From assembly GCA_016124845.1 (NCBI GenBank), contig WGMW01000003.1, positions 27,824-91,823 on the forward strand: 64,000 bases of DNA, read 5' to 3'. The notes under the pieces were generated by a model. The model made no database searches, had not been told where the DNA came from, and worked only from the letters and a program-made list of their open reading frames with translations. The first letter of the stretch is position 1. Each line of letters begins with the position of its first letter. Of this stretch, positions 10,009 to 51,810 are shown one piece after another. The translations under genes and the position numbers were made by a program. Source of the DNA: Flavobacteriales bacterium (GTDB lineage Bacteria; Bacteroidota; Bacteroidia; UBA10329).

Positions 10009-10091
10009 AGCCACAGATGCACAGATTGACACTGATTTTCACAGAGAATATTTAATCCGTGTTTTCTGTGAAAATCTGTGCATCTGTGGCT
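10009..10091. repeat. Long palindromic intergenic element from the AGCCACAGA...TCTGTGGCT family.
   Basis: AGCCACAGATGCACAGATTGACAC...GTGAAAATCTGTGCATCTGTGGCT. The two arms are near-perfect reverse complements. Confidence 0.75.
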
Positions 10092-11793
10092 ATAAAATGT
10101 TCTGTTTCTTTTCGGCAGGAGTCAATTCCTGAATCCAAGAATTATCATACGGAACGAATATACCCGAATTGTCGGCTTCTTCTTTGGTGATTTTCGTATC
10201 CACGTAATGCGCCAATACCTTGAACGCAGTTGGTTTCATGTCTTTCAGTACCAGCAACGCGGTGTTCATGCCCGATTTAACGGCTATGGGAACGCCACCG
10301 CCAAGGTCTGCCCAATGGCCACCAAGCCAAAGGTTCTTCACGGGCGTTCTGTGCCCCGCAATTTTGGCCTGCATGTTTGCCTTTCCAGGGCGCGCACCCA
10401 TCAGCGAGCCATCGCGGTTTCCCGTGTAGCGCCAGTGCGTAATAGGCGTTGCGATGTCGCAATACTCAATGTGCGAACGGATGTCCTTGCCGAGTTTCTT
10501 CTCCACGCGGTCAATGAGCACATCTGCATATTCCTGCTTGAATTTCTTGTACGCCTCGCCACGTTTCAGATGACCGTGTTCATCGATTTCCGTCATCCAT
10601 TGCTCATTCTGATGGAACCGTGCGTAGCAGTAAATGGTCATGGTGCCTTTGCCTTTCGGTGCCAATGATGGGTCGCGGAACGAAGGAGCGAGAACGCTGA
10701 TGCCCGCTTTGTGCGGGTCGCCTGCGTTGTGCTCCGTGCGTTTCACATCATCACGCACAATGAAAAGCATGGCGTCATCCAGACCGAGTTCTTCCACAGG
10801 GCAATTCAGTGCTAAGTTGATGGTCACAGCCGAGCTGTAGAGTTCCGCGTCCTTCAGTTTCTTCTTGATGGTGGTTGGAACAGCCGTGTCGGGAAGCATC
10901 TTCTCATACAGCGTTTCCACATCGCAAGCGGCAATGATGTGCTTGGCTTTTACGGTGAATTTCTCGCCTTTTCTGTCGAGGGTGACGCCCTTGGCCTGCC
11001 CATTTTCCAGTTCAATTTTCTCAACCCGATATTGGAAATGAACGTCATTTCCGAGTTTCTCGGTCACGTATTGCAACCACTCAGGAAATACCTGACTTCC
11101 ACCTTTCGGTGGACTCTGATAATCGCTATAATACGCCCATCCGATAGGCACCAACGCAGAAAGCAATTCCTCTTCCGACCCAAAGATTTTCAGCATTTCA
11201 GGGTCTTTGAAGTAGCGCTGCAATCCTTTCACCGTTCCTTCGGGTCCTGTAAAACGGATGTGCTTCAGAAACGCCATTGCGAATTCCAACCGTTGCATGT
11301 TGAAGAAGAATTTCTCCAAGAAACCCATTGTTTCCAACGAACGCGAGAAAGCGGGCAGTCCGTCAAACGACTTTCCTATCTGCTTGGCATCCTTGAAAAA
11401 GCGTTCAATGCCGTCCTTCTCGTGCAGGAACTTGGCAATGAGCTCTGCTTTCAGTTCATCGGGATTGTTGGTGAGATGATAGCTGTACGTATCGCCCACA
11501 TATCGCTTGATGTTCGGCTGAATTTCTGCCACAGGATGGTCGTTTCCAATGAAATCGAAAACGCGGGTTACCAGACCTCGCGGTCCGCACTGGTTCAACC
11601 AATGAATGGCGCTATCAAAACGGAAATCCTTCCTGCGGAAACCTGCCAGATAACCCCCTGGCCGACTGTCCATTTCGAAAACGCCAACGGAAAGTCCAGC
11701 ACGGCTTAGCAGCGCAGCAGAGGTCAGTCCGCTAACGCCCGCACCGATGACAACCACATCGTAGGATGGTTTGATGGGTTGGTGACGCATCAA
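10090..11793 (-). CDS. FAD-dependent oxidoreductase of the phytoene-desaturase (CrtI) / amine-oxidase family.
   Basis: DVVVIGAGVSGLTSAALLSRAGLSVGVFE...PGG is the Rossmann FAD motif. Length 567 aa. Confidence 0.7.
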   Translation of the reverse strand: MMRHQPIKPSYDVVVIGAGVSGLTSAALLSRAGLSVGVFEMDSRPGGYLAGFRRKDFRFDSAIHWLNQCGPRGLVTRVFDFIGNDHPVAEIQPNIKRYVGDTYSYHLTNNPDELKAELIAKFLHEKDGIERFFKDAKQIGKSFDGLPAFSRSLETMGFLEKFFFNMQRLEFAMAFLKHIRFTGPEGTVKGLQRYFKDPEMLKIFGSEEELLSALVPIGWAYYSDYQSPPKGGSQVFPEWLQYVTEKLGNDVHFQYRVEKIELENGQAKGVTLDRKGEKFTVKAKHIIAACDVETLYEKMLPDTAVPTTIKKKLKDAELYSSAVTINLALNCPVEELGLDDAMLFIVRDDVKRTEHNAGDPHKAGISVLAPSFRDPSLAPKGKGTMTIYCYARFHQNEQWMTEIDEHGHLKRGEAYKKFKQEYADVLIDRVEKKLGKDIRSHIEYCDIATPITHWRYTGNRDGSLMGARPGKANMQAKIAGHRTPVKNLWLGGHWADLGGGVPIAVKSGMNTALLVLKDMKPTAFKVLAHYVDTKITKEEADNSGIFVPYDNSWIQELTPAEKKQNIL

Positions 11794-13037
11794 GCTTTGG
11801 CCTTGGCCATCTTTTCAATATCCACCACCTGAGCCAGCGTGCGGATGATGGTGTTGTGCTTGCTCACGAACGGATTTGTCTTGTCCCAAACATAGCCTGC
11901 AAGCACAGAAGTGAGTTGCTTTTTCATCAACGGGTTGATGTTCACGTGGAAGAAGATCTTCTGCAAATTGCCTGTGTACCATTCCTTCACATAGGTTCGG
12001 AAAACGTCAATACCGTATTCCAAAAACTCCACGTAATCTTTCTGCCAATCGACTTGTTCGCCTTTCAGTTGGCGGTCAACCAGCTTAGCAGCGGTAATTC
12101 CAGATTGCGTTGCGAACGCCACACCCGAAGAGAAAACAGGGTCGAGGAACTCGGTGGTGTTTCCTGTAAGCACGTAGCGGTCACCGAAGAAACGGTCGGA
12201 ATGACGCGTGTAATCGCCATGCACTTTCGGTTCGAACATGTAGGTCTTATCCTTGAAACGCTCTGCGAATTTCTTCGACCGCTTGAACATATTATTGAAG
12301 GCCGCATTCACATCGGCACCGTCCTGCGTAAACTCATCGAAGTATTTCTTGTTGCCCACAAAACCAAGCGAAGTAATGCCATTATTGAACGGAATCACCC
12401 ACAGCCAAAGGTCTGTTTCGAGGATGTCGAAAGAGATCTGCATCGGTGTTGGGAACGTGTCGCGCGTATCGTCCAGAAAGTGCGTGTAAGTGGCCATGTT
12501 ACTCGTTGGCGAAACATGTGTTGGAATTTCCAGCATCTTGGCCAGAACGCCACCGTAGCCGCTGCTATCTACCACAAATTGGGCTGTGTAATCCACAGTT
12601 CCAGTTGGTGTGTTGACGTTGAAGCGCACTACATCCTCATCAAAACTCAGGTCGCCAAGCGTGCTCTCATAAAGGATTTCAACGCCTTTCTTTTCGGTTT
12701 CATCTGCCAACGTTTTGTCAAATTCGCCTCGCGGGGCTTGCCAGGCGTAGGTCCAGCCAGGCGTGAAATTATCATCGAACGAAATACGGAATTCAATACC
12801 GTCTCGGATGAAAAGCGCTCCTTCCTTGATTTCGAATTGCTTCTCTTCCAAAGCGGGGAGAAGGCCTGTTTCCTCATAATGTTCCATCGAAATGGGAAGC
12901 AGACTCTCACCGATCACAAAGCGTGGAAACTTGGCGCGTTCCACAATCGTGACCTTGTAACCCTGATTGGCCAAATGCGAAGCGGCCACCGATCCAGATG
13001 GTCCTGCTCCTATGACTAAGACATCAATATTTTTCAT
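11790..13037 (-). CDS. Flavin-dependent halogenase of the tryptophan-halogenase family.
   Basis: VLVIGAGPSGSVAAS is the GxGxxG. TDLWLWVIPFNNG carries the WxWxIP motif diagnostic of flavin halogenases. Confidence 0.7.
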   Translation of the reverse strand: MKNIDVLVIGAGPSGSVAASHLANQGYKVTIVERAKFPRFVIGESLLPISMEHYEETGLLPALEEKQFEIKEGALFIRDGIEFRISFDDNFTPGWTYAWQAPRGEFDKTLADETEKKGVEILYESTLGDLSFDEDVVRFNVNTPTGTVDYTAQFVVDSSGYGGVLAKMLEIPTHVSPTSNMATYTHFLDDTRDTFPTPMQISFDILETDLWLWVIPFNNGITSLGFVGNKKYFDEFTQDGADVNAAFNNMFKRSKKFAERFKDKTYMFEPKVHGDYTRHSDRFFGDRYVLTGNTTEFLDPVFSSGVAFATQSGITAAKLVDRQLKGEQVDWQKDYVEFLEYGIDVFRTYVKEWYTGNLQKIFFHVNINPLMKKQLTSVLAGYVWDKTNPFVSKHNTIIRTLAQVVDIEKMAKAKA

Positions 13038-13049
13038 TTACATGGATTT

Positions 13050-13129
13050 GGCCACAGATGCTCAGATTTTCACTGATTCTGCACAGAAAATTGATCAGAG
13101 AAATCTGTGTAAATCCGTGAATCTGTGGC
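13050..13129. repeat. Long palindromic intergenic element from the AGCCACAGA...TCTGTGGCT family.
   Basis: GGCCACAGATGCTCAGATTTTCAC...GTGAATCTGTGGC. Confidence 0.7.
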
Positions 13130-13139: not shown

Positions 13140-14654
13140 TCACTCGGTGTCCTTAATTCGTTTTAATAATTGCTTCTTATCCAAAAATTGACTGCATGTG
13201 ACGATTGAACTGATGGTAACACCAAAGATGCCATGCAGGTTCAAATATTGTCCAGTCAACCAAAGGTTGGGGATTTTTGTTTGCGGAGAGATGAAATTCG
13301 TCAGCCCTCTGCGGAAATCTTTTTCGGTTCCGTACATGTTTCCATCATCATTGCCGATGTAATCGCGGAAAGTAAGCGGGGTTGAAGCATGCACACTTTG
13401 AATGCAGTTTCTGATCTCAGGGAAACGCTTTTCAACCGCATCCAATAACTGTTCGGTTTTCTGATGTTTCCAAGCTTCGTAATCGGATGGGCGTTCGTGC
13501 GGGGAAACAATCGTGTTCTGCGAATTCGCCCATTGTTCCACTTCATCAAACCGCATGTAGGTCATGATGGAAATGCCGTCTGCCCATTCATCCGACTTTG
13601 AAGTGGCGGGCGTGCAAAGCAGGTATTGCAACGGCCATTCAGCTTCCGTGTAATCAGGTTTGGCCCAAACATGATTGGAAGTGTGGTGATAAACATTGTA
13701 GTTCAGATACGGGAACGATTGTGGCTTGCAAACGATGTGCACCGAAAAGCTGGAAAGCGTGTGTAGAGCGCGCTGAAACCGATTGTAAAATGACGGTTTG
13801 AAATGCTCCTTTCCGATCATCTGCAACAGCACTTTCGGTTGAATGTTGGAGATGAAATTCTTGCCTTGGAAGGTTTCTCCGTCTTCGGTTTTCGCGGCCG
13901 TGAGTTGACCACTTTCCAGTTCAAAACCGACCACTTTCTTTCTTCGCAGCACTTCACCGCCTTTCTCGCGGATGCGCTTGGAAAGTTCCTTGGCCAATTG
14001 CGAACCGCCATCCACGCAACGGTATGCGCTCAACACATATCCATGCGTGACCAACGCATGAATATAGAGTGGACACTTCTCAGCAGAACCCGCGTAAAGC
14101 AAGTTTGAACCCGCCAGGACTGCCCGTAATTTCGGGTTGAGTGTAAGTCCATCGATCAACTCTTTGGCACCAAGACCCAATAGGCCGATGTCTGTATGGT
14201 CTTGCTCCGAGAATTCAAGTTGATCCAACGGGAACGTGGTCACGGTTTCCTGAATGGTTCGGCTGTAAAGTTGAATGGCTTTTTCTTCATCAGGAAACTC
14301 CTTGATCAATTCGTCTTCGAAAGCTTCCCAAGAACTGGTATGATGGAATTTCGAGCCGTCATCAAAACTTATTTGGTCGAAATGGTTGTCCATCTTCTTC
14401 CATTTCACACTTTCTGTAAGTCCGAAGTATTTGAAGTAGGAGTGAAGTGGTTGGCCTTCGTCCAGCGCGGGCAGATAATGCACGCCTGTATCGAAAACCG
14501 TTTTGTCCCTACTGAAAACCTGTAACGAGCCGCCCAACTGTTGGTTCTTTTCCAGCACACAGATACTGAAACCATGGTCAGCCAAGATGTAAGCACATTG
14601 CAAGCCACCCAGCCCACTACCAATGATCACGAAATCGTACACCTTCTCCGTCAT
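13140..14654 (-). CDS. FAD-dependent oxidoreductase, CrtI / retinol-saturase-like.
   Basis: MTEKVYDFVIIGSGLGGLQCAYILADHGFSICVLEKNQQLGGS. The track extends this to a TTG at 14672. The ATG at 14654 is the more likely start. Confidence 0.7.
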   Translation of the reverse strand: MTEKVYDFVIIGSGLGGLQCAYILADHGFSICVLEKNQQLGGSLQVFSRDKTVFDTGVHYLPALDEGQPLHSYFKYFGLTESVKWKKMDNHFDQISFDDGSKFHHTSSWEAFEDELIKEFPDEEKAIQLYSRTIQETVTTFPLDQLEFSEQDHTDIGLLGLGAKELIDGLTLNPKLRAVLAGSNLLYAGSAEKCPLYIHALVTHGYVLSAYRCVDGGSQLAKELSKRIREKGGEVLRRKKVVGFELESGQLTAAKTEDGETFQGKNFISNIQPKVLLQMIGKEHFKPSFYNRFQRALHTLSSFSVHIVCKPQSFPYLNYNVYHHTSNHVWAKPDYTEAEWPLQYLLCTPATSKSDEWADGISIMTYMRFDEVEQWANSQNTIVSPHERPSDYEAWKHQKTEQLLDAVEKRFPEIRNCIQSVHASTPLTFRDYIGNDDGNMYGTEKDFRRGLTNFISPQTKIPNLWLTGQYLNLHGIFGVTISSIVTCSQFLDKKQLLKRIKDTE

Positions 14655-14766
14655 TCGCTGCGAAGGTCGCAAACGCGCGGTTAATTGGATTACGGTGATT
14701 TACGGATGAGGAAATGAAAAACGTGAAACATGTAATTGAAGTTATCTTTTGAGTTAACTTTGCGGT

Positions 14767-15407: not shown

Positions 15408-15417
15408 TGGTTGGAAT

Positions 15418-15502
15418 AGATGCTGAAACAAGTTCAGCATGACGGCAACGGTTTACCATTAAACTTCTCAGAGTGCGTCAACCTGAACTTGTTTCAGGTT
15501 CT
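15418..15502. repeat. Two-hairpin element.
   Basis: AGATGCTGAAACAAGTTCAGCATGACGG at 15418-15445 and GTCAACCTGAACTTGTTTCAGGTTCT at 15477-15502. Confidence 0.7.
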
Positions 15503-15510
15503 GTTTTTCG

Positions 15511-17815: not shown

Positions 17816-18223
17816 TTACGCAGCACTCTTATTCTCCATCAGATCATAGGGACGATTGAATGCCTCCTGCGCCATTTTAAAATGCCCGGCCAGTTTGCGG
17901 ATGCTCTCTTTTGAAAGTCCTTTCTGATAGTTCAGAATTTTGGAGATTGTTCCTTTGGAGAGTTCGAGAATATCAACAAGGTCTTTTGCCTTCAGTCCGT
18001 TTTCATGCATCAGCGCGGTAAGCAGTTCAATCGGGTCTTTCTCCTTGAATGAAGCATGTTCGGCATCCCACGTTCCGATCAGAAGCGTGAGCAGTTCAAT
18101 CTCATCCTGCACATCGGCATTCTGGCTGAAAACCAGTTCTTCCAACGTGTTGCAGTAATCGTTGTATTGCTTTTTGGTTTTGATAACGCTGTATTTCAAC
18201 TCTGCCATGGCTCTGAATTTCAT
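17816..18223 (-). CDS. higA: HigA-type antitoxin with a C-terminal XRE HTH.
   Basis: AKDLVDILELSKGTISKILNYQKGLS is the HTH. It overlaps the upstream toxin by 4 bp. Confidence 0.65.
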   Translation of the reverse strand: MKFRAMAELKYSVIKTKKQYNDYCNTLEELVFSQNADVQDEIELLTLLIGTWDAEHASFKEKDPIELLTALMHENGLKAKDLVDILELSKGTISKILNYQKGLSKESIRKLAGHFKMAQEAFNRPYDLMENKSAA

Positions 18224-18555
18224 TTGTACATATCCACCGAATATTGTTCACCCTTCTTGCAAAGCTTGTCGTATTCGGCATGTGTTCCCATCCATTTTAC
18301 AAAGAGATGCGCCTGGTGTTTCCCAAACATGTAAGCGCAGATCAACCTGTATTTGTTGCCGCCAATATTGAAAACCACTCGATTGGAGCCATTTCCAAGA
18401 ATGTCGGCCGTGTTGAAGGTCGCCACCATGTCAGCAGGTTCGTTCCAGTCGGCCTGACCGAGGATGGACAGCCACGTCTCAAATCCCGTTCTGCTTTGCG
18501 CGTTCTTTCCAATGAAGTCGAGAATGCTTTGCTTTTTGATCAGGTGAACTTTCAT
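18220..18555 (-). CDS. higB: HigB-type mRNA-interferase toxin.
   Basis: 111 aa. MKVHLIKKQSILDF...NRVVFNIGGNKYRLICAY...HLFVKWMGTHAEYDK is typical of the HigB toxin family. The toxin-first order matches HigBA. Confidence 0.65.
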   Translation of the reverse strand: MKVHLIKKQSILDFIGKNAQSRTGFETWLSILGQADWNEPADMVATFNTADILGNGSNRVVFNIGGNKYRLICAYMFGKHQAHLFVKWMGTHAEYDKLCKKGEQYSVDMYK

Positions 18556-18626: not shown

Positions 18627-18709
18627 AGATGCTGAAATAAATTCAGCATGACGGCCGAGGTTTGCTGCAACCTTACAAATTCTGTCACCCTGAACTTGTT
18701 TCAGGGTCT
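18627..18709. repeat. Two-hairpin element. It overlaps the stop codon of the large fusion gene.
   Basis: AGATGCTGAAATAAATTCAGCATGACGG at 18627-18654 and GTCACCCTGAACTTGTTTCAGGGTCT at 18683-18709. Confidence 0.7.
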
Positions 18710-24182: not shown

Positions 24183-24254
24183 TGCCACAGATGCTTAGAT
24201 TTTCACAGATTTCTCAGATGAATTATTGTCTCTGTGTCTCTGTATCTCTGCGTG
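24183..24254. repeat. Palindromic family element with a degenerate right arm.
   Basis: AATGCCACAGATGCTTAGATTTTCACAGATTTCTCAG...TCTCTGTGTCTCTGTATCTCTGCGTG. Confidence 0.5.
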
Positions 24255-24270: not shown

Positions 24271-25011
24271 ATGAGCGACCGAAGAATAGCATTGGTAACA
24301 GGTGGTTCACGTGGATTGGGACGCGCCATTTCGGTGCGTTTGGCCAAAGACCACGGACTGCATGTGCTGGTCAATTACGCTTCTAACTCAGCTGCTGCGG
24401 ATGAAACCGTGAAGCTGATTGAAGAAGCAGGCGGCACGGCCGAAGCCATTGGTTTCAATGTGGCCGATAGAGAAGAGACAGATGCGGCTCTGACCAAATG
24501 GTTGGAAGCCAACGAAGGCGAACACATCTCCGTGATCGTGAACAACGCAGGAATTACCAAAGACGGACTTTACATGGTGATGCCTAACGAGGATTGGGAT
24601 AACGTGCTTGGCGTGTCGTTAGGTGGTTTCTACAACGTTACCCGCAAGTTGGTTGACCGCATGATCCGCAAGCGTTGGGGAAGAATTGTCAACGTGGTTT
24701 CCGTATCTGGAATGATGGGCAACGCAGGGCAGGTCAATTACTCAGCTGCAAAAGGTGGAGTAATTGCTGGAACCAAAGCATTAGCAAAAGAGATCGCGAA
24801 GCGAAACGTAACCGTAAATGCCGTTGCACCAGGTTTCATCGAAACAGATATGACAGCCGATTTCGACCAGAAAGAGATGTCAAGGATGATACCGATGGGG
24901 CGTTTCGGAAAGCCGGAAGAAGTAGCCGCAGCCGTTTCGTTCTTGGTGTCTGACGATGCATCGTACATCACAGGAAATGTGATTAATATCAATGGTGGAT
25001 TATATTGTTGA
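24271..25011 (+). CDS. fabG: 3-oxoacyl-ACP reductase (SDR, FabG-like).
   Basis: TGGSRGLGRAIS is the glycine-rich motif. NNAG and the YSAAK catalytic Tyr/Lys are present. Confidence 0.8.
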   Translation: MSDRRIALVTGGSRGLGRAISVRLAKDHGLHVLVNYASNSAAADETVKLIEEAGGTAEAIGFNVADREETDAALTKWLEANEGEHISVIVNNAGITKDGLYMVMPNEDWDNVLGVSLGGFYNVTRKLVDRMIRKRWGRIVNVVSVSGMMGNAGQVNYSAAKGGVIAGTKALAKEIAKRNVTVNAVAPGFIETDMTADFDQKEMSRMIPMGRFGKPEEVAAAVSFLVSDDASYITGNVININGGLYC

Positions 25012-25141
25012 TGAAGTTTACAGAGTTTATAAAGTTGATTAAGAGATAAGATTTGCAGAACGCGGTTCCCCCTTTACAAAGGGGGTGTCGAGAAACGAGA
25101 CGGGGGATTTAATTAGTTGAAAAAGAGTGAATACATTTTAT

Positions 25142-25520
25142 AGCCACAGAAACACAGATTTACACAGAAAGACACAGAGAACATTCTCTGTGAAAACCTC
25201 TGTGCTTTCTGCGCCTCTGTGGCTAAACGATTTTCTCGGTGCATCTCCATTTCTCAGATTTTCTCTGTGCAATAATCCTCTTTGCATCTCTGCGTCTCTG
25301 CGTGAGATAAAAAGAACAGACATGTTAAAGCCACAGAAACACAACTTGTCCCGACACTTCGGGAGATTTACACAGAATGAAAAAGGAGTTTTTTCTGTGA
25401 AAACCTCTGTGCCTTCTGCGCCTCTGTGGCTAAACGATTTTCTCGGTGCATCTCCATTTCTCAGATTTTCTCTGTGCAATAATCCTCTTCGCGCCTTTGC
25501 GCCTTTGCGAGAGGTAAATT
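25142..25520. repeat. Tandem duplication of about 2 x 190 bp of the palindromic element plus its 3' extension.
   Basis: 25142-25223 and 25331-25433 both read AGCCACAGAAACACA...TTCTGTGAAAACCTCTGTGC(C/T)TTCTGCGCCTCTGTGGCT. Each is followed by AAACGATTTTCTCGGTGCATCTCCATTTCTCAGATTTTCTCTGTGCAATAATCCTCTT. The ORFs 25127..25558 (+) and 25138..25479 (-) are translations of this repeat. Confidence 0.75.
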
Positions 25521-25554
25521 GGTCTCTGCGTGAAACAAAAAATATTTCTCAAGC

Positions 25555-26781
25555 ATGAATAACCGAGTGGTGATAACTGGTCTGGGAATTCATTCTTGCC
25601 TTGGCCAAAATGCCGAGGAAGTGACGGCTTCGCTCCGGGACGGAAAATCAGGTATCATCTTCGACCCTGTGCGCAAGGAAATGGGTTTCCGTTCTGCGCT
25701 GGTCGGTGATGTGCCCATGCCCGAATTGAAAGCAGAACTCGGTCGTAAAGACCGCAAGAACATGCCAGAGGAAGCGCTCTACGCCTTCGTTTCTACAAAA
25801 CAGGCGTTGGAAATGGCAGGCATGACCCAAGAGTTCATCGACCAGAACGAGGTCGGTATTCTCTTCGGAAACGATAGTACCGCAGGTGCGGTCATAGAAG
25901 GCGTGGATCTGCTTCGCGAGAAGAAGGACACCACACTTATCGGTTCAGGAAACATCTTCCAGAGCATGAACTGCACCGTAACCATGAACCTCAGCACCAT
26001 CTTCCGCCTCAAAGGCGTCAACTTTACGGTGAGTGCGGCATGCGCCAGCGGTTCGCATTCCATCGGTATGGGCTTCCTGCTCATTAAAATGGGATTGCAG
26101 AAACAGATCATCTGCGGAGGCGCGCAAGAGGTCAACCCGTATGCATTCGGAAGTTTCGATGGCATCGGAACCTTCTCCACCTATGAGGACACCCCAACCG
26201 AAGCCTCACGTCCTTTTGATAAGACACGCAACGGACTGGTACCAAGTGGTGGCGCAGCAACCGTCATTCTCGAAAGTTTGGAAAGCGCACAGGCACGTGG
26301 AGCCAACATCTTGGCCGAAGTGGTCGGTTACGGCTTCAGTTCCAACGGAGAGCACATCTCCAACCCCAATGAAGAAGGGCAGGTGCGCGCGCTCAAAATG
26401 GCCATGGAAATGGGCGGAGTAAAACCCGAAGAGGTCGATTACATCAACGCCCACGCCACCAGTACACCCGTTGGCGATGCGTTCGAAGCACAGGCCATCC
26501 ACAGCGTATTCGGAGACAACGGCCCATTGGTAAGCAGCACCAAAAGCATGACGGGCCACGAGTGCTGGATGGCAGGCGCCTCAGAGGTCGTCTATTCGCT
26601 ACTTATGATGCAGAACGGTTTCGTGGCACCCAACATCAACTTCTCAGAGCCAGATGAAGCCTCGGCCAAGCTCAACATCCCATCAAAAAGTGTGGATAAG
26701 GAATTGAACACGATCCTCTCAAATTCGTTTGGGTTCGGAGGAACAAACTCAACGTTGATAATTCGTAAGTTCGCGCCCTGA
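25555..26781 (+). CDS. Beta-ketoacyl-ACP synthase (KAS I/II-like).
   Basis: VSAACASGSHSIG is the active-site Cys. NAHATSTPVGD and TGHECWMAGASE carry the His/His residues. GFGGTNS is at the C-terminus. Confidence 0.8.
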   Translation: MNNRVVITGLGIHSCLGQNAEEVTASLRDGKSGIIFDPVRKEMGFRSALVGDVPMPELKAELGRKDRKNMPEEALYAFVSTKQALEMAGMTQEFIDQNEVGILFGNDSTAGAVIEGVDLLREKKDTTLIGSGNIFQSMNCTVTMNLSTIFRLKGVNFTVSAACASGSHSIGMGFLLIKMGLQKQIICGGAQEVNPYAFGSFDGIGTFSTYEDTPTEASRPFDKTRNGLVPSGGAATVILESLESAQARGANILAEVVGYGFSSNGEHISNPNEEGQVRALKMAMEMGGVKPEEVDYINAHATSTPVGDAFEAQAIHSVFGDNGPLVSSTKSMTGHECWMAGASEVVYSLLMMQNGFVAPNINFSEPDEASAKLNIPSKSVDKELNTILSNSFGFGGTNSTLIIRKFAP

Positions 26782-26783: not shown

Positions 26784-27026
26784 ATGGACAAGCAGCAGAT
26801 CATCGATACCGTAAATGAGTTCCTGATAGAGGAATTCGAGGCAGATGCGGCCGACCTTGTGGCCGATGCCAACATGCACGAAACACTCGACCTCGACAGT
26901 CTCGATTATGTGGACCTCGTGGTGCTTATCGATGAGAATTTCGGTTTCAAAACCACAGCCGAAGACTTCCAGACCATCAAGTCGTTTGACGACTTCTACA
27001 ACTTTATTGCCTCTAAGGTGAGTTGA
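26784..27026 (+). CDS. Acyl carrier protein.
   Basis: 80 aa. LDLDSLDYVDLVVLIDE contains the phosphopantetheine attachment Ser in DSL. Confidence 0.75.
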   Translation: MDKQQIIDTVNEFLIEEFEADAADLVADANMHETLDLDSLDYVDLVVLIDENFGFKTTAEDFQTIKSFDDFYNFIASKVS

Positions 27027-27089
27027 TCAGTTGACTGGGTTGACCAGTTGATCAGTTCGGATTTCCCTGAGTTTATTGTACACGTTTGC

Positions 27090-27151
27090 TGTCACCCTGA
27101 ACTTGTTTCAAGGTCTAATTCAATAGATGCTGAAACAAGTTCAGCATGACG
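27090..27151. repeat. Two-hairpin element at the left edge of the island.
   Basis: GTCACCCTGAACTTGTTTCAAGGTCT, then AATTCAATAG, then ATGCTGAAACAAGTTCAGCATGACG. This is the reverse complement of the copy at 45585-45644. Confidence 0.75.
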
Positions 27152-27305
27152 AGCGGCATGTGCGTTTGGGTAGGCTGAGCGGAGCCGAAGTCTACAGAGG
27201 TAGGCTTGGCTGTACCCTTCGATTGCCCTCAGGGTACGGCTGCTCGCACCACGTTTTACCTTTGTTGATTTTGCGGAAGACGCGTTTGCAAAATGCTGAG
27301 TGGGG

Positions 27306-27454
27306 GTTGCATGCCACTCTATGGTGATTGCATGCCAGCCGTTCGGTGAGGCATACCACCGAGACGCTGAGGCATCCCAGAAAGACGCGGAGGCATACTG
27401 GAAAGACGGGATTGCATACCGCAAAGACGGGGAGGCATGCCAGCTATTGGTGGA
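27306..27454 (+). repeat. Seven degenerate direct repeats of 21 bp, iteron-like.
   Basis: GGTTGCATGCCACTCTATGGT, GATTGCATGCCAGCCGTTCGGT, GAGGCATACCACCGAGACGCT, GAGGCATCCCAGAAAGACGCG, GAGGCATACTGGAAAGACGGG, ATTGCATACCGCAAAGACGGG, GAGGCATGCCAGCTATTGGTGG. Confidence 0.6.
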
Positions 27455-35321: not shown

Positions 35322-35327
35322 TCTGAG

Positions 35328-35981
35328 ATGTCGATTAGGTCGATTGTTCCGAAGACAAGGATTGTTTTAGCGTTAGACTGTGAAACTGAGGAGGAATGTG
35401 TTCGAGTTTTAAACAGTTGCTACGAACAAATAGATTTAATCAAAGTTAATTACCCTCTTATTTTATCTGAAGGTCTCCCAATTATTGGCAGGCTTAAGAA
35501 AGTATTTGGCAAGCCAATTATTGCAGATTTCAAAGTTGCTGATGCACCAGTAACGAATAATCGAATCGTGAAATTGGTCAAAGATGCTGGTGCTGATTCA
35601 ATAATGGTTCATGCTATAGTAGGTACTGATGCGATTTATGAAATAAAGCAAATTGGAGGTGGCGAATTGGAAATAATAGTGGTAACGGAATTAACTCATC
35701 CTGGAGGTCTGGAGTTTACAAGAAAGTACGCAGAGGAGGCGGCAAAACTTGCATTGGAGATGGGGTGTTTGGGAATTCAAGCTCCTGGTACTCGGCCGGA
35801 ACAAATTGAAAAACTCAGGCAAATTGTAGGTCAGGACATGATTATCGTGGCTTGTGGTGTAGGAGCGCAGGGGGGACAGTATTCCGAAGTTATTAAAGCT
35901 GGAGCTGATTACGCTATCATTGGAAGGGCGATTTATGAATCAAGTAATCCGTCCTTAGCCATTGAATCTATTATTACTTGA
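35328..35981 (+). CDS. OMP-decarboxylase-superfamily TIM-barrel protein, HPS/KGPDC/type-1-OMPDC-like.
   Basis: RIVLALDCETEEE is the ALD start. PIIADFKVADAPVT matches DxKxxD. SIMVHAIVG. IIGRAIYES is the GR-I phosphate loop. Confidence 0.6.
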   Translation: MSIRSIVPKTRIVLALDCETEEECVRVLNSCYEQIDLIKVNYPLILSEGLPIIGRLKKVFGKPIIADFKVADAPVTNNRIVKLVKDAGADSIMVHAIVGTDAIYEIKQIGGGELEIIVVTELTHPGGLEFTRKYAEEAAKLALEMGCLGIQAPGTRPEQIEKLRQIVGQDMIIVACGVGAQGGQYSEVIKAGADYAIIGRAIYESSNPSLAIESIIT

Positions 35982-36139
35982 GTTTGAAGGTGGTTGCCCA
36001 AGGTCTGGTATTTCCTTAAAGTACCATAAGTTTCTGAGGGTCTTTGGCTTTTGAAGAGGCTTCCCGGCTCGCGCGAGTGTTCCGAAGGGTCACTCGTGTG
36101 GAGGTAAATACAATCAGTTTCCAAACTGATCTTCAAAGA

Positions 36140-36380
36140 TTAAATAAGATCGCCACTGCCTCCGCTTCCCGTTAGCGTTTGCAACGCGTGCTTTCTTACC
36201 TGAAAACCGCCATCAGTCCTAACCGTCTGATAACCAGCGTTCTCAGTCCACTCCCGATCTATCTCCGTCTTCTCCCGATCATTCTCGGTCGAGTCCCGAT
36301 CATTCTCGGTCGAGTCCCGATCTATCTCGGTCAAGCCCCGATCTATCTCGGTCAAGCCCACGATCTATCTCAGTCTTGCC
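36140..36380. repeat. Left copy of a large inverted repeat. It has about 110 bp of unique sequence plus an array of six 21-bp tandem repeats (CCCGATCWWTCTCGGTCRAGY).
   Basis: Six tandem units at 36253-36380. 36205-36252 is homologous in reverse complement to 53997-54040. ORFs 36140..36361 (-) and 36179..36481 (+) are 7-aa-periodic translations of the array. Confidence 0.7.
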
Positions 36381-36589
36381 CCAAAAATCTACCCTTAAAG
36401 CACCGATCAACCTCTGTTCAGTCCCGGGTATTCACCAAAGGGCAACAACTCATATCAGTTTTAATTAAAAGATGCCAGTAGAACCGCGGCCTTCCCTCTT
36501 GGCTGGTCAGCCTATCATAATCTGAGCCCCCAAAAGAACACGCAAATCCACGTATCCCCGAACTTCCGAACCTTACTAAATTCGCGCCC

Positions 36590-37464: not shown

Positions 37465-37568
37465 AGCCACAGATTCACGGATTAGCACTGATTTTTCACA
37501 GAATATATTCGCAAAGCGAAAAGAAAACAATCTGTGTTTTTTCTGTGAAAATCTGAGCATCTGTGGCT
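37465..37568. repeat. Palindromic family element.
   Basis: AGCCACAGATTCACGGATTAGCAC...GTGAAAATCTGAGCATCTGTGGCT. Confidence 0.7.
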
Positions 37569-38135: not shown

Positions 38136-39287
38136 TTGCGAACAATGCCTAAAGTACGGACTGGTTTGAGCGAGGTTTACGTAGGCGCAAAATCTGTTAT
38201 CTGCCCCTTGGGCGATACACCCGCCAAGGTGTATGATGCCATGCTACGTGGCGAAACAGGTTTGCAGCAGGTGGAGCAGCCGTTCGGGGTGGAAACCACC
38301 AGCCACGTGGGGCTGATACCCAACAGTTTCATCATAGAGGAACATATAGACAGCACCAAGCTGGAGAATATGCTGGCCAAGTGCTACGAGCATTCGGTAA
38401 GCAAGCTGCGCTTCGACCCCTTTCAGGACGAGGACGGCCTGGTGATCATCTGCACGACCAAGGGCAACATTGATAAGATAGATAGGGACAACGACCCGCG
38501 CTTGCCGCTTACGCGATTGAGCAAGTTCATGCGGCAGTCGTTCGATCTGGCCAATGAACCGATAATCATCAGCAATGCCTGTATTTCGGGCGTGTTGAGC
38601 ATCATTACCGCAGCGCGTTTGATACGTGCTGGCAAGTACGAACACGTATTGGTGTTGGGTGGCGATGTGGTTTCGGAATTCACCCTTTCGGGATTTGCTG
38701 CTCTGCACGCCTTGACGGAAGGTGTGTGCAAGCCATACGATAAGAACAGAACGGGCATCAACCTGGGCGAAGCAGCCGCAGGTCTGGTGCTTTCGAATGA
38801 CGATACGCTATTTAAAGGAAGATGCGATGAGTACGTGTCGGGCGCCAGTGCCAACGATGCGAACCATATTTCGGGTCCATCCCGAACGGGAGAAGGGCTG
38901 CACCGCAGCATAGAACGGACGTTGAACCCTGCTTCGGTCAGTGCCACGCAGATAGGTTATCTGTCGGCCCACGGAACGGGCACTTCCTTTAATGATGAGA
39001 TGGAAAGCATAGCGTTTGAGCGCAGCGGACTGTCTGATGTTCCCATCAACAGCATGAAAGGCTATTTCGGCCACACGCTGGGCGCGGCAGGTGTGATAGA
39101 AACCCTCCTCGGATTGGAAGCCATGAAGCGCAAGGAACTTGTTGCTTCGCTTGGTTATGAGGAACAAGGCGTTTCTCGACTCATGAACATCATCACAGCA
39201 ACCACTCAGCCCACCTCGGGTTATTTCCTCAAGACCGCATCAGGTTTTGGCGGATGCAATGCGGCAGCTTTATTCAAGACGAGATGA
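38136..39287 (+). CDS. Beta-ketoacyl synthase.
   Basis: ISNACISGVLSI is the active Cys. SAHGTGTSFND and GHTLGAAG follow. GFGGCNAA is at the C-terminus. Confidence 0.75.
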   Translation: MRTMPKVRTGLSEVYVGAKSVICPLGDTPAKVYDAMLRGETGLQQVEQPFGVETTSHVGLIPNSFIIEEHIDSTKLENMLAKCYEHSVSKLRFDPFQDEDGLVIICTTKGNIDKIDRDNDPRLPLTRLSKFMRQSFDLANEPIIISNACISGVLSIITAARLIRAGKYEHVLVLGGDVVSEFTLSGFAALHALTEGVCKPYDKNRTGINLGEAAAGLVLSNDDTLFKGRCDEYVSGASANDANHISGPSRTGEGLHRSIERTLNPASVSATQIGYLSAHGTGTSFNDEMESIAFERSGLSDVPINSMKGYFGHTLGAAGVIETLLGLEAMKRKELVASLGYEEQGVSRLMNIITATTQPTSGYFLKTASGFGGCNAAALFKTR

Positions 39288-39312
39288 AATTGAGTACCTT
39301 GGAGGCTGAAAA

Positions 39313-39534
39313 ATGTTGGTCATGAGCACGAAAGAACTGATTTCGAAAATAGACGCGCTTCCTCCTGAATTCCGAAGGGAAGTGGAAGATTTCATTGACT
39401 TTCTGAAGCAGAAATTGGAACGTGAGGAAACGAAGAAACCTCTTGAAAAACGACAGTTCGGCTATGCCAAGGGCTTTTTCAAAATGTCTGACGATTTCGA
39501 TGAACCATTGGAGGATTTCAAAGATTATATGTGA
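39313..39534 (+). CDS. Antitoxin (DUF2281-like) paired with the downstream PIN toxin.
   Basis: 73 aa. Its end overlaps the start of the downstream PIN gene by 4 bp. Confidence 0.5.
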   Translation: MLVMSTKELISKIDALPPEFRREVEDFIDFLKQKLEREETKKPLEKRQFGYAKGFFKMSDDFDEPLEDFKDYM

Positions 39535-39917
39535 TGAATATTCTCCTTGATACGCACGCGTTTGTTTGGTTCATGAACGCGGATGGTAAGTTTCCTAAGC
39601 ATCTTATCAAGGACATTGAGAATTTTGAGAACACCTGCTATTTGAGTGTTGCCAGCCTTTGGGAAATGGCCATCAAGGTAAATCTTGGTAAACTTGAACT
39701 GGTTGATGATTTCGAGAACATTCTGGAATTCTGTTCTTCCAACAGGATTATTCTTCTGCCCATTGAATTCGAAGACACACGGTCGGTAATTGGTCTTCCA
39801 GACCATCATCGCGACCCTTTCGATAGAATGTTAGTGGTTCAGGCCAATCGGCAAGAGGCAATTCTCCTTACCAAAGACCGCATGTTTGACCGCTATGAAG
39901 TTCAGACCCGTTGGTAA
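39531..39917 (+). CDS. vapC: PIN-domain ribonuclease toxin (VapC).
   Basis: ILLDTHAFVWF carries the first acidic residue, SLWEMAIK the second, and the later DPFDRMLVVQA the third. Confidence 0.65.
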   Translation: MMNILLDTHAFVWFMNADGKFPKHLIKDIENFENTCYLSVASLWEMAIKVNLGKLELVDDFENILEFCSSNRIILLPIEFEDTRSVIGLPDHHRDPFDRMLVVQANRQEAILLTKDRMFDRYEVQTRW

Positions 39918-39955
39918 GTGTCATCTCTTGAAAACCCCTTTCTTCGCGAACTGAT

Positions 39956-40558
39956 TTGAGTTTGAGCCTGAAAACATATTGCCGCATCAAGGACAACGAG
40001 GTTCACATCAATGGCGAACTCTTCTGTCAGCACATGGACGAGGAACCATTCCTACGGTCGGTTTACAAGCACATCGGGCTCAGTTACCCGAAGTTCTTCA
40101 AGATGGATGCGCTTTCGCAACTTGGTTTCCTTGGTGCCGAAATGACGCTGATGCGTTCCGAATTGGAAACGTATGCCGATGATGAAGTGGCGGTGGTGTA
40201 TTCCAACCGTTCCTCCAGTTTGGAAACAGACCATGCGTACTACAACTCGCTGAAGGAAAGCGGCATTGCCAGTCCTGCGCTGTTCGTGTACACGCTTCCG
40301 AACATTGAAGTGGGCGAGATATGCATCCGCCACAAGTTGTATGGCGAGAACAACTTCCTAATCACCGAGCGGTTTGATGCTGCGCAACTCTTGGAGCAAT
40401 GCGAGGCGCTGTTCGCGGATAATGCCGCCAAGGCCGTGCTCATTGGCTGGACCGAAGTGAATGGAGAGGAACACGATGGTTTCTTCGCGTTCATCACCAA
40501 CTCAGGAGTTGACGAATTGACAGCGGAACATTTGACAGATTTGTATTTAGACAGATGA
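39956..40558 (+). CDS. KAS-related protein lacking the catalytic Cys, chain-length-factor-like.
   Basis: ALFVYTLPNIEVGEICIRHKLYGENNFL resembles the region around the KAS active site, but has no Cys. Confidence 0.45.
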   Translation: MSLSLKTYCRIKDNEVHINGELFCQHMDEEPFLRSVYKHIGLSYPKFFKMDALSQLGFLGAEMTLMRSELETYADDEVAVVYSNRSSSLETDHAYYNSLKESGIASPALFVYTLPNIEVGEICIRHKLYGENNFLITERFDAAQLLEQCEALFADNAAKAVLIGWTEVNGEEHDGFFAFITNSGVDELTAEHLTDLYLDR

Positions 40559-40567: not shown

Positions 40568-40649
40568 AGCCACAGAAACACAGATTTACACAGAATGAAA
40601 AAGGAATTTTTTCTGTGAAAACCTCAGTGTCTTCAGTGCCTCTGTGGCT
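40568..40649. repeat. Palindromic family element.
   Basis: AGCCACAGAAACACAGATTTACACAGAA...TTCTGTGAAAACCTCAGTGTCTTCAGTGCCTCTGTGGCT. Confidence 0.75.
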
Positions 40650-40664: not shown

Positions 40665-41858
40665 ATGATGGAGATTGCTGTCACAGGCATAGGAGCGATT
40701 TCGGCCATCGGCAACGATGTGCAGGAAAACTTGGCTTCGCTTTTAGCGAAGAAAACAGGCGTTGGTAAAACCGAACTGCTCAGATCCAAGCTCACAGAAA
40801 CACATCTTTTAGGAGAAGTGAAGTTGAGCAACGACCAACTGAAAGCAGGCCTGAACTGGAAAGGCGATGCTGTTTCCAGAACCACGCTTCTGAGTTCTTG
40901 GGCCATGAAAGAGGCCATCGAGCAATCGGGTTTTGAGATGGACAACCATGTTGGGTTGGTGTCATCGACCTCGGTAGGCGGCATGGACAGAAGCGAGGGC
41001 TTCTTCGAGCCTTACTACCTCGAACAGGACTTTTCGAATGTGTTCCTACTCGGAACGCACGATTGCGGCACCTGTACCAAACAGGCCGCAGCGCATTTCG
41101 GCATTACAGGATATGCAACAACCATAAGCACGGCCTGTTCTTCTGCCGCCAATGCCATTGCAATGGGCGCACGCTTGCTACGTCAAGGCAAGTTGAAGCG
41201 CGTCATCGTGGGCGGAACAGATGCCTTGTGCCGATTTACGGCCAATGGCTTCAACTCGTTGATGATCTTGGACACGGAATGGTGCAAGCCGTTCTCTGCC
41301 AATCGCGCTGGATTGAACTTGGGAGAAGCTGCGGCTTATCTCGTGCTGGAAAGCAAGGAAGAGGCGGAAGCACGTGGCGCGAAGATCCACGGTCTGGTAA
41401 CAGGTTGGGCCAATACGAACGATGCGTACCATCAAACGGCTTCATCACCTGATGGAAATGGGGCGTTCATGGCCATGTCGCAAGCGTTGGAGAAAGCAGG
41501 TTTGAAGTCGACAGACATCGGCTACATCAACGCCCACGGTACTGGCACACAGAATAACGACCAGTCGGAAAGTATTGCCATCCACCGAGTTTTTGGGGCG
41601 CAGAAACCGCCTATCAGTTCTACCAAAGCTTATACAGGTCATACGTTGGCTGCGGCTGGAGCCATTGAGGCGGTGTATTCGCTATTGGCGTTGAAGGAGC
41701 AAAAGTTCCTTCCCAATTTGAACTATCAGGACCCGATTGAGGACAACGATTGGAAACCGCAGTTGGAAGTGGAGAGTGGTGAGATTAATCATGTGCTTTC
41801 CAACTCATTCGGGTTTGGCGGTAATAATTCAACGGTGATTTTTAGTAGGTACAGTTGA
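40665..41858 (+). CDS. Beta-ketoacyl-ACP synthase II-like.
   Basis: ISTACSSAANAI is the active Cys. NAHGTGTQNND and TGHTLAAAGAIE follow. GFGGNNS is at the C-terminus. Confidence 0.8.
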   Translation: MMEIAVTGIGAISAIGNDVQENLASLLAKKTGVGKTELLRSKLTETHLLGEVKLSNDQLKAGLNWKGDAVSRTTLLSSWAMKEAIEQSGFEMDNHVGLVSSTSVGGMDRSEGFFEPYYLEQDFSNVFLLGTHDCGTCTKQAAAHFGITGYATTISTACSSAANAIAMGARLLRQGKLKRVIVGGTDALCRFTANGFNSLMILDTEWCKPFSANRAGLNLGEAAAYLVLESKEEAEARGAKIHGLVTGWANTNDAYHQTASSPDGNGAFMAMSQALEKAGLKSTDIGYINAHGTGTQNNDQSESIAIHRVFGAQKPPISSTKAYTGHTLAAAGAIEAVYSLLALKEQKFLPNLNYQDPIEDNDWKPQLEVESGEINHVLSNSFGFGGNNSTVIFSRYS

Positions 41859-41875
41859 CATGATTGAGCCACAGA

Positions 41876-41958
41876 TGCACAGATTTACACAGAAATTTCA
41901 CAGAGATTTATTTTCTCCGTGTATCTCAAATACTCCAGTTTTCTCTGTGCAATCACCA
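41876..41958. repeat. Palindromic family element with a degenerate right arm.
   Basis: AGCCACAGATGCACAGATTTACACAGAAATTTCACAGAG...TTTTCTCTGTGCAATCACC. Confidence 0.6.
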
Positions 41959-45584: not shown

Positions 45585-45644
45585 GTCATGCTGAACTCGT
45601 TTCAGCATCTAATCAATAGACCCTGAAACAAGTTCAGGGTGACG
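45585..45644. repeat. Two-hairpin element in inverted orientation relative to 27090-27151.
   Basis: GGTCATGCTGAACTCGTTTCAGCATCTAATCAATAGACCCTGAAACAAGTTCAGGGTGACG. Confidence 0.75.
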
Positions 45645-48441: not shown

Positions 48442-48743
48442 ATCGTCTTTAACTCTTTTGCTACGCCAGTTTATCGAACATTCGTGTTTGGCGTTTCATT
48501 CTTGTCTTGGTGGGGAAATATAGGTAATTGAACCATACTCGAACCAATTATATGTTAATTAGTCTTAACCACCTGTTGTTCATTGCGTTTTCAATGTATG
48601 GCCGTAGGATTATTTGGGCGTTCCCACGCACATAATGCGAGGCAGTTATGTGCGCGGTCAGGCTGTCCGCTATATTCCCGCAAATGCGGGAGATGCCGCT
48701 TCCATCCTTAACGCGCGCCATCTGCCAGCCGCATCAAAAAACA

Positions 48744-50170: not shown

Positions 50171-50545
50171 TCACACTACGGGCGGTGGATGGAAAATGGA
50201 ACTTGGGATATCCGCTCCGTGTAGATTGGAAATGTTTGGAACGAGGCGTGTCTCGTTCTCAAATTGCCTCAACTCAAAATCTGAGGTCTGCGTAAAGAAC
50301 AGCAGCACTTCTTCCAATTGCGATGGAAGCGCGGGCATTTTTTTCGAGCCTTCTTCTGATTTCTTCAACTGCTTGGCCAAATGACATTTCCCGTTGCAGG
50401 TGTTCATTTTTGTGTCTTTCTGCACGCAGATGGTCTGGCTAATTAATTGCTGATGGATCTTGAAATCCAAGAACACGAAACTCTTCAGAAAAACATTGCT
50501 GAAAAGCAGTCCGATCAATCCTATGGCGGCTATGGCGCGAAGCAT
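50171..50545 (-). CDS. Hypothetical small membrane protein. The gene call is uncertain.
   Basis: The track ORF 50171..50653 would overlap the glycosyltransferase start. The internal Met at 50545 avoids the overlap. Confidence 0.25.
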   Translation of the reverse strand: MLRAIAAIGLIGLLFSNVFLKSFVFLDFKIHQQLISQTICVQKDTKMNTCNGKCHLAKQLKKSEEGSKKMPALPSQLEEVLLFFTQTSDFELRQFENETRLVPNISNLHGADIPSSIFHPPPVV

Positions 50546-50635
50546 CACGGCAAATATACCAAGCGATTCAACTGCAAATATGATTTTCGGCACTCTCGGT
50601 TCATTTATACGGTATCCTATTTTTGCAACTACAGC

Positions 50636-51718
50636 ATGAGCTCGCAGCCGCAACGCATTCTCTTCTTGGTTCCCTACCCATTGGGAATTGCGCCCAGCCA
50701 GCGTTTCCGCTTCGAGCAGTACTTCGATAAGCTGACGGAAGCAGGTTTTGAGTTTGATGTAAAGCCGTTCTTGGACGAACGCGCCATGATCTACCTCTAC
50801 GAACCTGGCAACTTTTTCCGCAAGGTTTGGAAGGTGAAGCTCGGTTTGTTGAAGCGATTCCTCCAGCTATTTTCTATTGCGAAGTACGATTACGTTTTCA
50901 TTCATCGCGAAGCCGCAGCCATCGGTCCGCCCGTTTTTGAATGGATCATCACGAAGGTTTTTAGGAAGAAGGTCATCTTTGATTTTGATGACGCCATTTG
51001 GCTGAAGAACACGTCAAGCACCAATTCGGTTATTGCGTTCTTTAAGCGGTATCGCAACGCTAACGATACCTGCAAATGGGCGTGGAAGGTTAGTTGTGGG
51101 AACGATTACTTGGCCGATCATGCGCGGCAATTCAATCAGAACGTTTTTGTCAATCCGACCACGATTGATACGGAGCATCATCACAATCAGGTGAAGAAGT
51201 TCTCGGGTGAGAAGATCACCATTGGTTGGACAGGTACGCATTCCACCATCAAATACTTGGATGCGCTTATTCCGATCTTGAAGAAGCTGGAAGGTGAGTT
51301 CGATTTCAACTTTGTGGTAATCGCTGACCGCAAGCCCGATTTCGACCTGAAAGGACTTCAGTTCGTTCCATGGAACAAGCAATCGGAGATCGATGACCTG
51401 CTGAAAATGGATGTGGGCGTGATGCCGCTGGAGAACGACAAATGGGCGAAAGGCAAGTGCGGCTTCAAGGCGTTGCAGTACATGGCGCTGGGCATTCCCG
51501 CCATTGTTTCGCCTGTTGGGGTGAATACGAAGATCGTTGACCACGAGGTGAACGGTTGGATATGTGACACACCCGAGGAATGGGAGCAGACGCTTCGTTC
51601 CATCTTGGAGAAGAAGGTAGATCTGAAGGATTTTTCTACCGCTGCCCGAACCAAGATCGAGGAGCATTATTCGGTCAAGTCCAACACCCGCGATTTTCTA
51701 CTTTTGTTCGCCAATTAA
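50636..51718 (+). CDS. GT-B fold glycosyltransferase (GT1/GT4-like).
   Basis: The C-terminal ALQYMALGIPAIVSPVGVNTKIVDHEVNGWIC is typical of GT4 nucleotide-sugar binding. The likely start is MSSQPQRILFLV at 50636. Confidence 0.65.
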   Translation: MSSQPQRILFLVPYPLGIAPSQRFRFEQYFDKLTEAGFEFDVKPFLDERAMIYLYEPGNFFRKVWKVKLGLLKRFLQLFSIAKYDYVFIHREAAAIGPPVFEWIITKVFRKKVIFDFDDAIWLKNTSSTNSVIAFFKRYRNANDTCKWAWKVSCGNDYLADHARQFNQNVFVNPTTIDTEHHHNQVKKFSGEKITIGWTGTHSTIKYLDALIPILKKLEGEFDFNFVVIADRKPDFDLKGLQFVPWNKQSEIDDLLKMDVGVMPLENDKWAKGKCGFKALQYMALGIPAIVSPVGVNTKIVDHEVNGWICDTPEEWEQTLRSILEKKVDLKDFSTAARTKIEEHYSVKSNTRDFLLLFAN

Positions 51719-51731
51719 AACGACATTTTAT

Positions 51732-51810
51732 AGCCACAGAAACACAGATTTCCACTGAATAAATGAAATCCTTCAGCGAAAACCTCTGTGCCTTCTGTGT
51801 TTCTGTGGCT
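51732..51810. repeat. Palindromic family element.
   Basis: AGCCACAGAAACACAGATTTCCACTG...AAACCTCTGTGCCTTCTGTGTTTCTGTGGCT. Confidence 0.75.

Follow-up and report, generated by a model that had tools for sequence, protein, structure and literature searches.

The window analysed here, a stretch of 64,000 nucleotides from contig WGMW01000003.1 of a Flavobacteriales bacterium, carries nine copies of one family of intergenic repeats built from CACAGA-like units, seven of which form long palindromes. Very probably the family is a selfish hairpin repeat, similar to the repetitive extragenic palindromic (REP) and ERIC repeats, and not a regulator of the pigment genes between which most copies lie. The complete statement, in which the copies are non-autonomous REP/ERIC-like hairpin repeats mobilised by an HUH/Y1-type enzyme and not pigment operators, is favoured with some reserve, and its mobilisation step, the movement of a single-stranded hairpin by an enzyme of this type, is put forward only tentatively. 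The family appears to be undescribed: no Rfam model and no literature description was found.

The same repeat adjoins housekeeping genes in related Bacteroidota, which argues for a selfish element and not for a pigment switch. The genes flanking it in these relatives include those encoding lysyl-tRNA synthetase, Ffh, fumarase, glutamine synthetase (GlnA), RibBA, malate synthase and a dicarboxylate symporter. Their hairpins lie beside genes of every class and are not specific to one cluster, and the orthologous pigment clusters contain only 0-2 copies each. A shared operator for the pigment genes, a possibility raised in the initial annotation, is not supported by these data.

Anatomy and fold of the repeat

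The 9-mer AGCCACAGA was found 14 times in the window versus 0.56 expected, and none of 100 shuffles reached this number. Clusters of at least four CNCNGA/TCNGNG units were present at the nine reported sites and nowhere else in the 64 kb, and an inverted-repeat scan of the window recovered the reported arm pairs. The nine loci of the initial annotation are therefore real and belong to one family (Table 1). Two positions had to be corrected: the copy listed at 41876 starts at 41867, and the fifth copy, which was off by 2, occupies 25329-25431. All copies are intergenic, as had been claimed, and the open reading frames (ORFs) that cross the repeats (25127-25558 and 25138-25479) are probably spurious. 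The distance of the copies is 9-14 nt from the preceding stop codon and 12-32 nt to the following start, and the gene at 10090-11793 (-) receives its TAG stop from a CTA that belongs to the foot of the first copy.

The proposed long hairpin was recovered in seven copies, which are palindromes of 80-105 nt with DNA fold z-scores between -4.1 and -9.4 and RNA folding energies between -25 and -51 kcal/mol on one or the other strand. It was not recovered in the copies at 24183 (z +0.1) and 41867 (z -2.0). These are one-armed variants in which the left arm is kept, the right half differs (CTCTGTGCAAT / TCTCTGCG units) and the fold is no better than that of shuffled sequences. The 24183 copy has an internal deletion compared with the orthologous copy of L033 (L numbers denote fetched loci). 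The 25329 copy with its tail is a tandem duplicate of the 25142 copy with its tail.

The arms measure 28-40 nt and consist of two to four units of 8-10 nt with the core C-N-C-N-G-A (CACAGA, CACGGA, CACTGA). The order within an arm is GCCACAGA, NN-CACAGA and NNNN-CAC(A/G/T)GA, the opposite arm is its mirror, and the foot of the element is AGCCACAGA...TCTGTGGCT. The element thus has inverted terminal repeats and no coding capacity, as a miniature inverted-repeat transposable element (MITE) does. Single arms consist of direct repeats and fold at 0 to -5.8 kcal/mol; having no fold of their own, they do not make the element a REP doublet. About two units per arm were counted in Chitinophagales copies and three or four in Flavobacteriales copies.

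The conserved element extends beyond the limits first reported. Outside the AGCC/GGCT foot, at a distance of 9-10 nt, there is an outer ACAT...ATGT pair, found in inverted arrangement in 21 of 34 Flavobacteriales copies, and the similarity between near-identical copies begins exactly at ACAT. At the variable spacer positions the arms agreed in 55/79 and 46/79 cases, versus 33 and 25 expected, which shows that palindromy is kept in each copy separately. The outer units of one arm were prescribed by the scan pattern, and part of their conservation in the scanned set follows from the search itself; copies reached via protein homology have the same design as those from the pattern scan.

Nested sequences were observed in some copies. 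A 21-nt mini-hairpin (ACTTGTCCCGACACTTCGGGA, 25344-25364), which occurs once in the window, is nested in the left arm of the 25329 copy, and the copies of a metagenome-assembled genome (MAG) labelled 'Chryseobacterium gleum' (L006, L031, L119) contain a nested insert of another sequence.

Table 1. Repeat copies and other mobile or repeated features of the window, with the state of the corresponding junctions (sites A-F) in related loci
Feature	Position	Strand	Fold	Location in the window	Further details and related loci
Full palindrome, type A (ATGCACAGATT arms)	10009-10091		DNA fold -27.4 kcal/mol, z -9.4	Between stop of 10090-11793 (-) and start of 8507-9976 (-)	Outer pair: ACAT at 9999, ATGT ending at 10100
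Full copy, several arm mismatches	13050-13129		z -4.7	Between amine-oxidase-like 13140-14672 (-) and halogenase-like 11790-13037 (-)	
One-armed degenerate copy (left arm, then TCTCTGTG/TCTCTGCG units)	24183-24254	+	z +0.1	Between aromatic amino-acid lyase and ketoreductase genes	Site E: empty in L129, L125
Full copy, type B (left arm AAACACAGATTTACACAGA, three-unit right arm)	25142-25224		z -4.8		Site D (with 25329): 15-16 nt in L126, L129; one copy in L033; GGGGAGG-type hairpins in L125
Tail module, ~104 nt (CGATTTTCTCGGTGCATCTCC...CTCTGTGCAAT...TCTCTGCGTGAGATAAA)	25225-25328			After 25142 copy	
Full copy, type B	25329-25431		z -4.2		Site D; second tail 25432-25540
Full copy	37465-37568		z -6.7	Between lipid-A-type acyltransferase stop (TAA 37454-37456) and thioesterase ATG (37585)	Site A: overlapping junction GCTTGATGAAG in L126, L127, L129, L144; copy shared by L125; other, asymmetric repeat in L130, L131, L028
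Full copy, type B	40568-40649		z -4.1	Between ORF 39956-40558 and ketosynthase 40665-41858	94% identical to 25329 copy; site B: empty in L127, L129, L136; type A copy common to L125, L126, L130, L131, L144, L028 (window: type B)
One-armed degenerate copy (left arm, then CTCCGTGTATCTCAAA...TTTTCTCTGTGCAAT)	41867-41958	+	z -2.0	Within ~200-nt insert between two ketosynthase-type genes	Site C: 12-nt junction TCGAAAGCGTGA in seven relatives; other hairpin repeats in L133, L139
Full copy, type B-like	51732-51810		z -7.6	Between glycosyltransferase 50447-51718 and glycine-cleavage T protein gene	Site F: element missing from corresponding L125 spacer
Second (REPIN-like) repeat family	7139-7263, 15415-15505, 18632-18704, 27091-27150, 45591-45640				
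IS110-family ORF, DEDD_Tnp_IS110	1812-2402	-			
IS110-family ORF, Transposase_20	1372-1791	-			

Orthologous junctions and distribution in other genomes

Orthologous loci of the flexirubin type were fetched by homology to the ketosynthase 40665-41858 and then mapped to the window. The relatives showed compact, often overlapping stop/start junctions, empty at six of the window sites. Presence, number and subtype of the elements vary between close relatives, and the tandem duplication of the window corresponds to a single copy in L033. The inserts at compact junctions measure about 110-200 nt and lack a target-site duplication. The empty compact junctions, together with the other repeats found there in other lineages, indicate that the copies are insertions and dispensable to the cluster. 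Stop/start junctions are places where inserts of several repeat families survive.

When the window was compared with L125, the identity was 72-79% to the left of about 25.5 kb (20.4-25.0 kb) versus 91-96% to the right (25.5-42 kb). This jump suggests a recombination breakpoint at the repeat-filled junction (24999-25561).

A pattern scan with one genome per species gave at least 120 loci. Among the matches listed, 77 were from Bacteroidota, 47 of these with a complete hairpin by strict criteria; they cover Flavobacteriales, Chitinophagales, Sphingobacteriales, Cytophagales and Marinifilum, and include many contigs of single MAGs. Since about 70 one-arm matches are expected by chance over the whole collection, isolated one-armed matches mean little. 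Hairpins of the same design were also found in MAGs labelled Pyrinomonadaceae, Acidobacteria gp4, Nitrospirota, Verrucomicrobiae, Piscinibacter and Roseateles, for which binning errors are possible. Viral contigs gave three matches only, and no phage link was seen among them. The spacers of 60 classified copies were co-directional in 38 cases, divergent in 13 and convergent in 9. A short-read contig of the same organism stops exactly at the 25142 copy, which indicates a repeat frequent enough to interrupt that assembly.

In Tobar13m-G11-like MAGs a wider palindrome, GGGCAATCGGGTCTTA...TAAGACCCGATTGCCC, encloses the CACAGA hairpin (L007 5412-5561, L019 1811-1963, L011 4727-4860). The wider palindrome is present in some MAGs and was not found in the window.

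Proposed mobilisation and rival explanations

The copies would have spread by a copy-and-insert process with the single-stranded hairpin as substrate. Its most likely agent would be an HUH/Y1-type (RAYT- or IS200-like) enzyme whose gene lies elsewhere in the genome, with the ACAT/ATGT motifs at fixed distance as candidate cleavage sites, and insertions would have survived almost only between stop and start codons. Copies in the pigment operons would be co-transcribed and would place a stable stem-loop (-25 to -50 kcal/mol) between cistrons, where it may change processing, decay or translational coupling. Such changes would be a by-product, and a copy could later be fixed. An mRNA-stabilising or processing role, also suggested in the initial annotation, is possible as a side effect of this kind.

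As with REPs and REPINs, the elements are extragenic, repeated, imperfect palindromes in many copies, without duplication and with a foot at both ends of the hairpin. Supplementary table 1 of Quentin et al. 2018 (PMC6006769) contains RAYT-associated REPs with the same stem core, namely those of Ignavibacterium album (GTAGCACAGATTAGTAATCTGTGCTAC, of the 'double-foot' form), Chloroflexus aggregans (GTAGCACAGGATTAATCCTGTGCTAC), Cytophaga hutchinsonii (GGTCTGTGTGCCACAGACC) and Flavobacterium johnsoniae (CACGGATTGCAAATCCGCG). The stem core CACAGATT/AATCTGTG is that of the 'long, double-foot' REPs, whose hosts include Bacteroidota and sister phyla (PMC6006769), and the present elements look like such REP hairpins lengthened by unit duplication. 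However, their foot is (T)TAGCC, whereas that of REPs is GT[AG]G, and their hairpin is three to four times longer and made of repeated units. In a REPIN, two inverted REPs each form a hairpin, which the arms of the element do not. In contrast to REP-RAYT systems, none of the seven RAYT loci has a RAYT flanked by the element.

The ERIC (IRU) repeats of enterobacteria and the Correia repeats (CREE/NEMIS) of Neisseria form long RNA hairpins for which effects on mRNA processing have been reported. The present family resembles both in consisting of imperfect palindromes of 80-150 bp in transcribed intergenic regions of operons, variable between strains and conserved across genera. It has no sequence similarity to either, and it spans orders of Bacteroidota with look-alikes in other phyla. 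Correia elements have a TA duplication, IHF sites and promoters, none of which was seen in the present element. In IS608 the cleavage sites lie at a fixed distance outside the foot of a hairpin. A likeness to PATEs of the IS200/IS605 group is found in the hairpin, the lack of duplication and the short motifs (ACAT/ATGT) at a fixed distance beyond the foot. PATEs have two subterminal hairpins that differ from each other, and their fixed target tetranucleotide is confined to one side, whereas the present element has a single symmetric hairpin, the same motif on both sides and no linked TnpA.

A search for the mobilising enzyme gave two RAYT genes in a motif scan of all fetched loci, and more were reached via protein searches and context look-ups. 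The loci examined include genomes that carry the element. The REPs at L011 and L147-L150 and those at L029 and L151 are of the GTAGAGACG or the CGGTCGGGGCGCT type. The element was rejected as the cognate repeat of these RAYTs, each of which has its own, different REPs. The 'CnGA-foot' structures of class 3 HuH enzymes (PMC6006769) were considered because the unit of the element ends in CNGA, and the tabulated sequences (CnGAGCCGCGACCGTAAGGGAGCGG) proved unrelated. The same holds for the Cardinium MITE, which is derived from IS982. No transposase was found near the tandem arrays of a Chitinophagales MAG or near the repeated one-armed copies in L096. Rfam 15 gave no match at the gathering score, and sub-threshold hits were only chance, miRNA-precursor-like ones; no description was found in the literature on the motif or on Bacteroidetes repeats and MITEs.

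In-frame inserts of their own REPs (GTAGAGACG...CGTCTCTAC), read as VQTLHATSLPP peptide repeats, were observed in RAYT genes of Flavobacteriales MAGs (L011 3974-4603 (-), L147-L150). In-frame REP insertions in RAYT genes have been described for subclass 2.4 (PMC6006769).

Several observations weigh against a selfish, HUH/Y1-mobilised repeat. No mobilising enzyme was found in the fetched loci, and no ORF lies between distant arms or beside tandem arrays. The foot is TTTAGCC and not GT[AG]G, with G rare at the required position in 79 copies, and the seven RAYT loci, from two subfamilies (L011, L029, L147-L151), are all flanked by other REPs. The genomes with empty sites are 75-90% identical, which places the insertion ends only approximately. 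Moreover, the occupied junctions of the window are concentrated in the pigment blocks (7/20 versus 1/41 outside, p = 0.001), blocks that were drawn after the data had been seen. At site B, the type A copy is 82-93% identical between lineages, and the 4-fold sites of the adjacent ketosynthase 41-59%. The 16-nt loop of this copy is invariant across five lineages and absent from the rest of the fetched DNA, so homogenisation by other copies does not explain the conservation. Conservation of this degree would not be expected of a purely selfish element.

The conservation at site B keeps alive, as a rather unlikely alternative, the explanation that the hairpins are selected RNA elements of polycistronic mRNAs, acting in processing and stability or as stop-restart spacing devices, with their repeat nature secondary. 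The close placement after stops and before starts agrees with it, as does an outward-facing ATG, found at 55 of 68 Flavobacteriales ends at a distance of 5-6 nt from the foot. This ATG opens an ORF of 1-4 codons at several sites, and at sites A and B the ORF ends at the start of the next gene. It is a lead for termination-reinitiation across the stem, nothing more, and the lengths of such ORFs are widely scattered, as by chance. On the other hand, relatives have intact clusters without elements at the same junctions, and 13 of the 60 classified copies lie in divergent spacers. The alignment of site-B orthologues contains no compensatory pair, and its substitutions at the N of CNGA break pairs. 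The comparison of sense with antisense hairpin stability (25 versus 15, p = 0.18) was not significant, nor was a hand count of type B orientation (9 versus 3).

The MITE-like nature suggested in the initial annotation stands as far as it describes small, non-coding palindromes found at some orthologous junctions and missing from others. Classical MITEs, which derive by deletion from a DDE-type insertion sequence (IS) and are moved by its transposase via the terminal inverted repeats, are a very unlikely explanation, although the long terminal inverted repeats, the small size without coding capacity and the insertion polymorphism would suit them and the repeated subterminal units resemble multiple transposase-binding sites. 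No direct repeats were found outside ACAT...ATGT in the 21 Flavobacteriales copies, where an excess of shared k-mers is explained by the palindromic CATG, and none appeared as target-site duplication when filled and empty junctions were compared. No parental IS with the same ends, and no parental transposase, was found in about 1.2 Mb of fetched related loci. The only transposase of the window is a broken IS110-family gene (1372-2402 (-), two ORFs), which is probably a pseudogene and has no CACAGA element at its ends. Arrays of CACAGA iterons that bind a pigment-gene regulator or a nucleoid-associated protein would account for the CNCNGA core at 8-10-nt spacing in both arms and for the pigment-block enrichment. 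They are nevertheless highly improbable, as the copies occupy stop-start spacers within operons and not promoters, the blocks of the test were defined post hoc, and the few copies in orthologous clusters and the unrelated housekeeping neighbours disagree with such a role. Bidirectional intrinsic terminators, another of the roles first suggested, would fit strong symmetric hairpins in intergenic DNA and are extremely improbable. The 5' flank is T-rich and the 3' flank A-rich on either strand, which is the reverse of the required polarity, and a terminator scan remained at shuffle level without flagging the full hairpins. Most copies separate biosynthetic genes that run in the same direction at close spacing, and others lie in divergent spacers.

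A wider reading, considered quite unlikely, would place the elements in a cross-phylum hairpin superfamily that grows by addition of CNCNGA units, is moved by an unlinked enzyme class and has some copies domesticated between cistrons. It would range from the 27-nt one-unit REPs of Ignavibacteria through hairpins of about 50 nt in Chitinophagales to those of 80-105 nt in Flavobacteriales, and the enzyme class would move them without duplication and without a GTAG foot. Purifying selection would then maintain the site-B copy, which has a stop codon at its first foot and an outward ATG at its second, and this arrangement may allow termination and restart of ribosomes across the stem.

The hairpins break short-read assemblies, create spurious ORFs (25127-25558) and put stable stem-loops between biosynthetic cistrons, and for these effects they matter in the annotation and heterologous expression of such clusters. 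The family is abundant across Bacteroidota. Under the favoured reading of a mobilised REP/ERIC-like repeat, the enzyme, once found, would extend the REP/RAYT picture to a phylum for which the structures noted so far are only 'atypical'. The site-B copy, with its strong conservation, would be a concrete case in which to ask whether such elements turn into functional parts of operons.

The pigment cluster and other features of the window

By Pfam, the surrounding genes form a flexirubin/aryl-polyene type cluster of the Flavobacteriales type, and the sequences closest to the window come from Flavobacteriales MAGs and freshwater metagenomes. The cluster encodes an aromatic amino-acid lyase, a ketoreductase, several ketosynthases, a thioesterase and a lipid-A-type acyltransferase, together with an MMPL-acyltransferase-methyltransferase fusion, halogenase-like and amine-oxidase-like enzymes, a LolA-like protein and glycosyltransferases. 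For the window, the initial annotation is right to place most copies in the pigment region. Their enrichment there is read as insertion history in this strain and not as a conserved association: a local proliferation in a region that has also acquired other insertions, among them a 9.5-kb island, toxin genes and further hairpin repeats.

The island (27020-36577) has a low GC content (39-40%), splits the pigment cluster and is absent from L125, L126 and L129. It codes for a 1717-aa protein without Pfam or PADLOC match, a 549-aa TCAD9/APH-like kinase and two OMP-decarboxylase-like proteins. A PIN-domain toxin gene (39531-39917) lies within the pigment cluster, where relatives have no counterpart of 39278-39957, and a HigB-like toxin gene (18220-18555) adjoins the MMPL fusion gene.

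In a second, REPIN-like repeat family a small hairpin, (A)GATGCTGAAACAAGTTCAGCATGAC / GTCACCCTGAACTTGTTTCAGGGTCT, is arranged in inverted doublets; the sequence CTGAAACAAGTTCAG (up to 2 mismatches) was found 11 times in the window versus 0.17 expected. G-rich hairpin repeats (ACCCCTCCTGACCTCCCC...GGGGAGG; CCCCCTTTACAAAGGGGG) are located at 684-711 / 829-856 and at about 25080-25100, and one pair of them sits within a long ORF. In L125, L133 and L139, related G-rich hairpins occupy junctions where the window has CACAGA elements. A match to the Flavo-1 RNA motif over the full model length was detected at 48652-48723 (-), below the threshold (34.5 bits versus a gathering score of 42, E = 0.0015).

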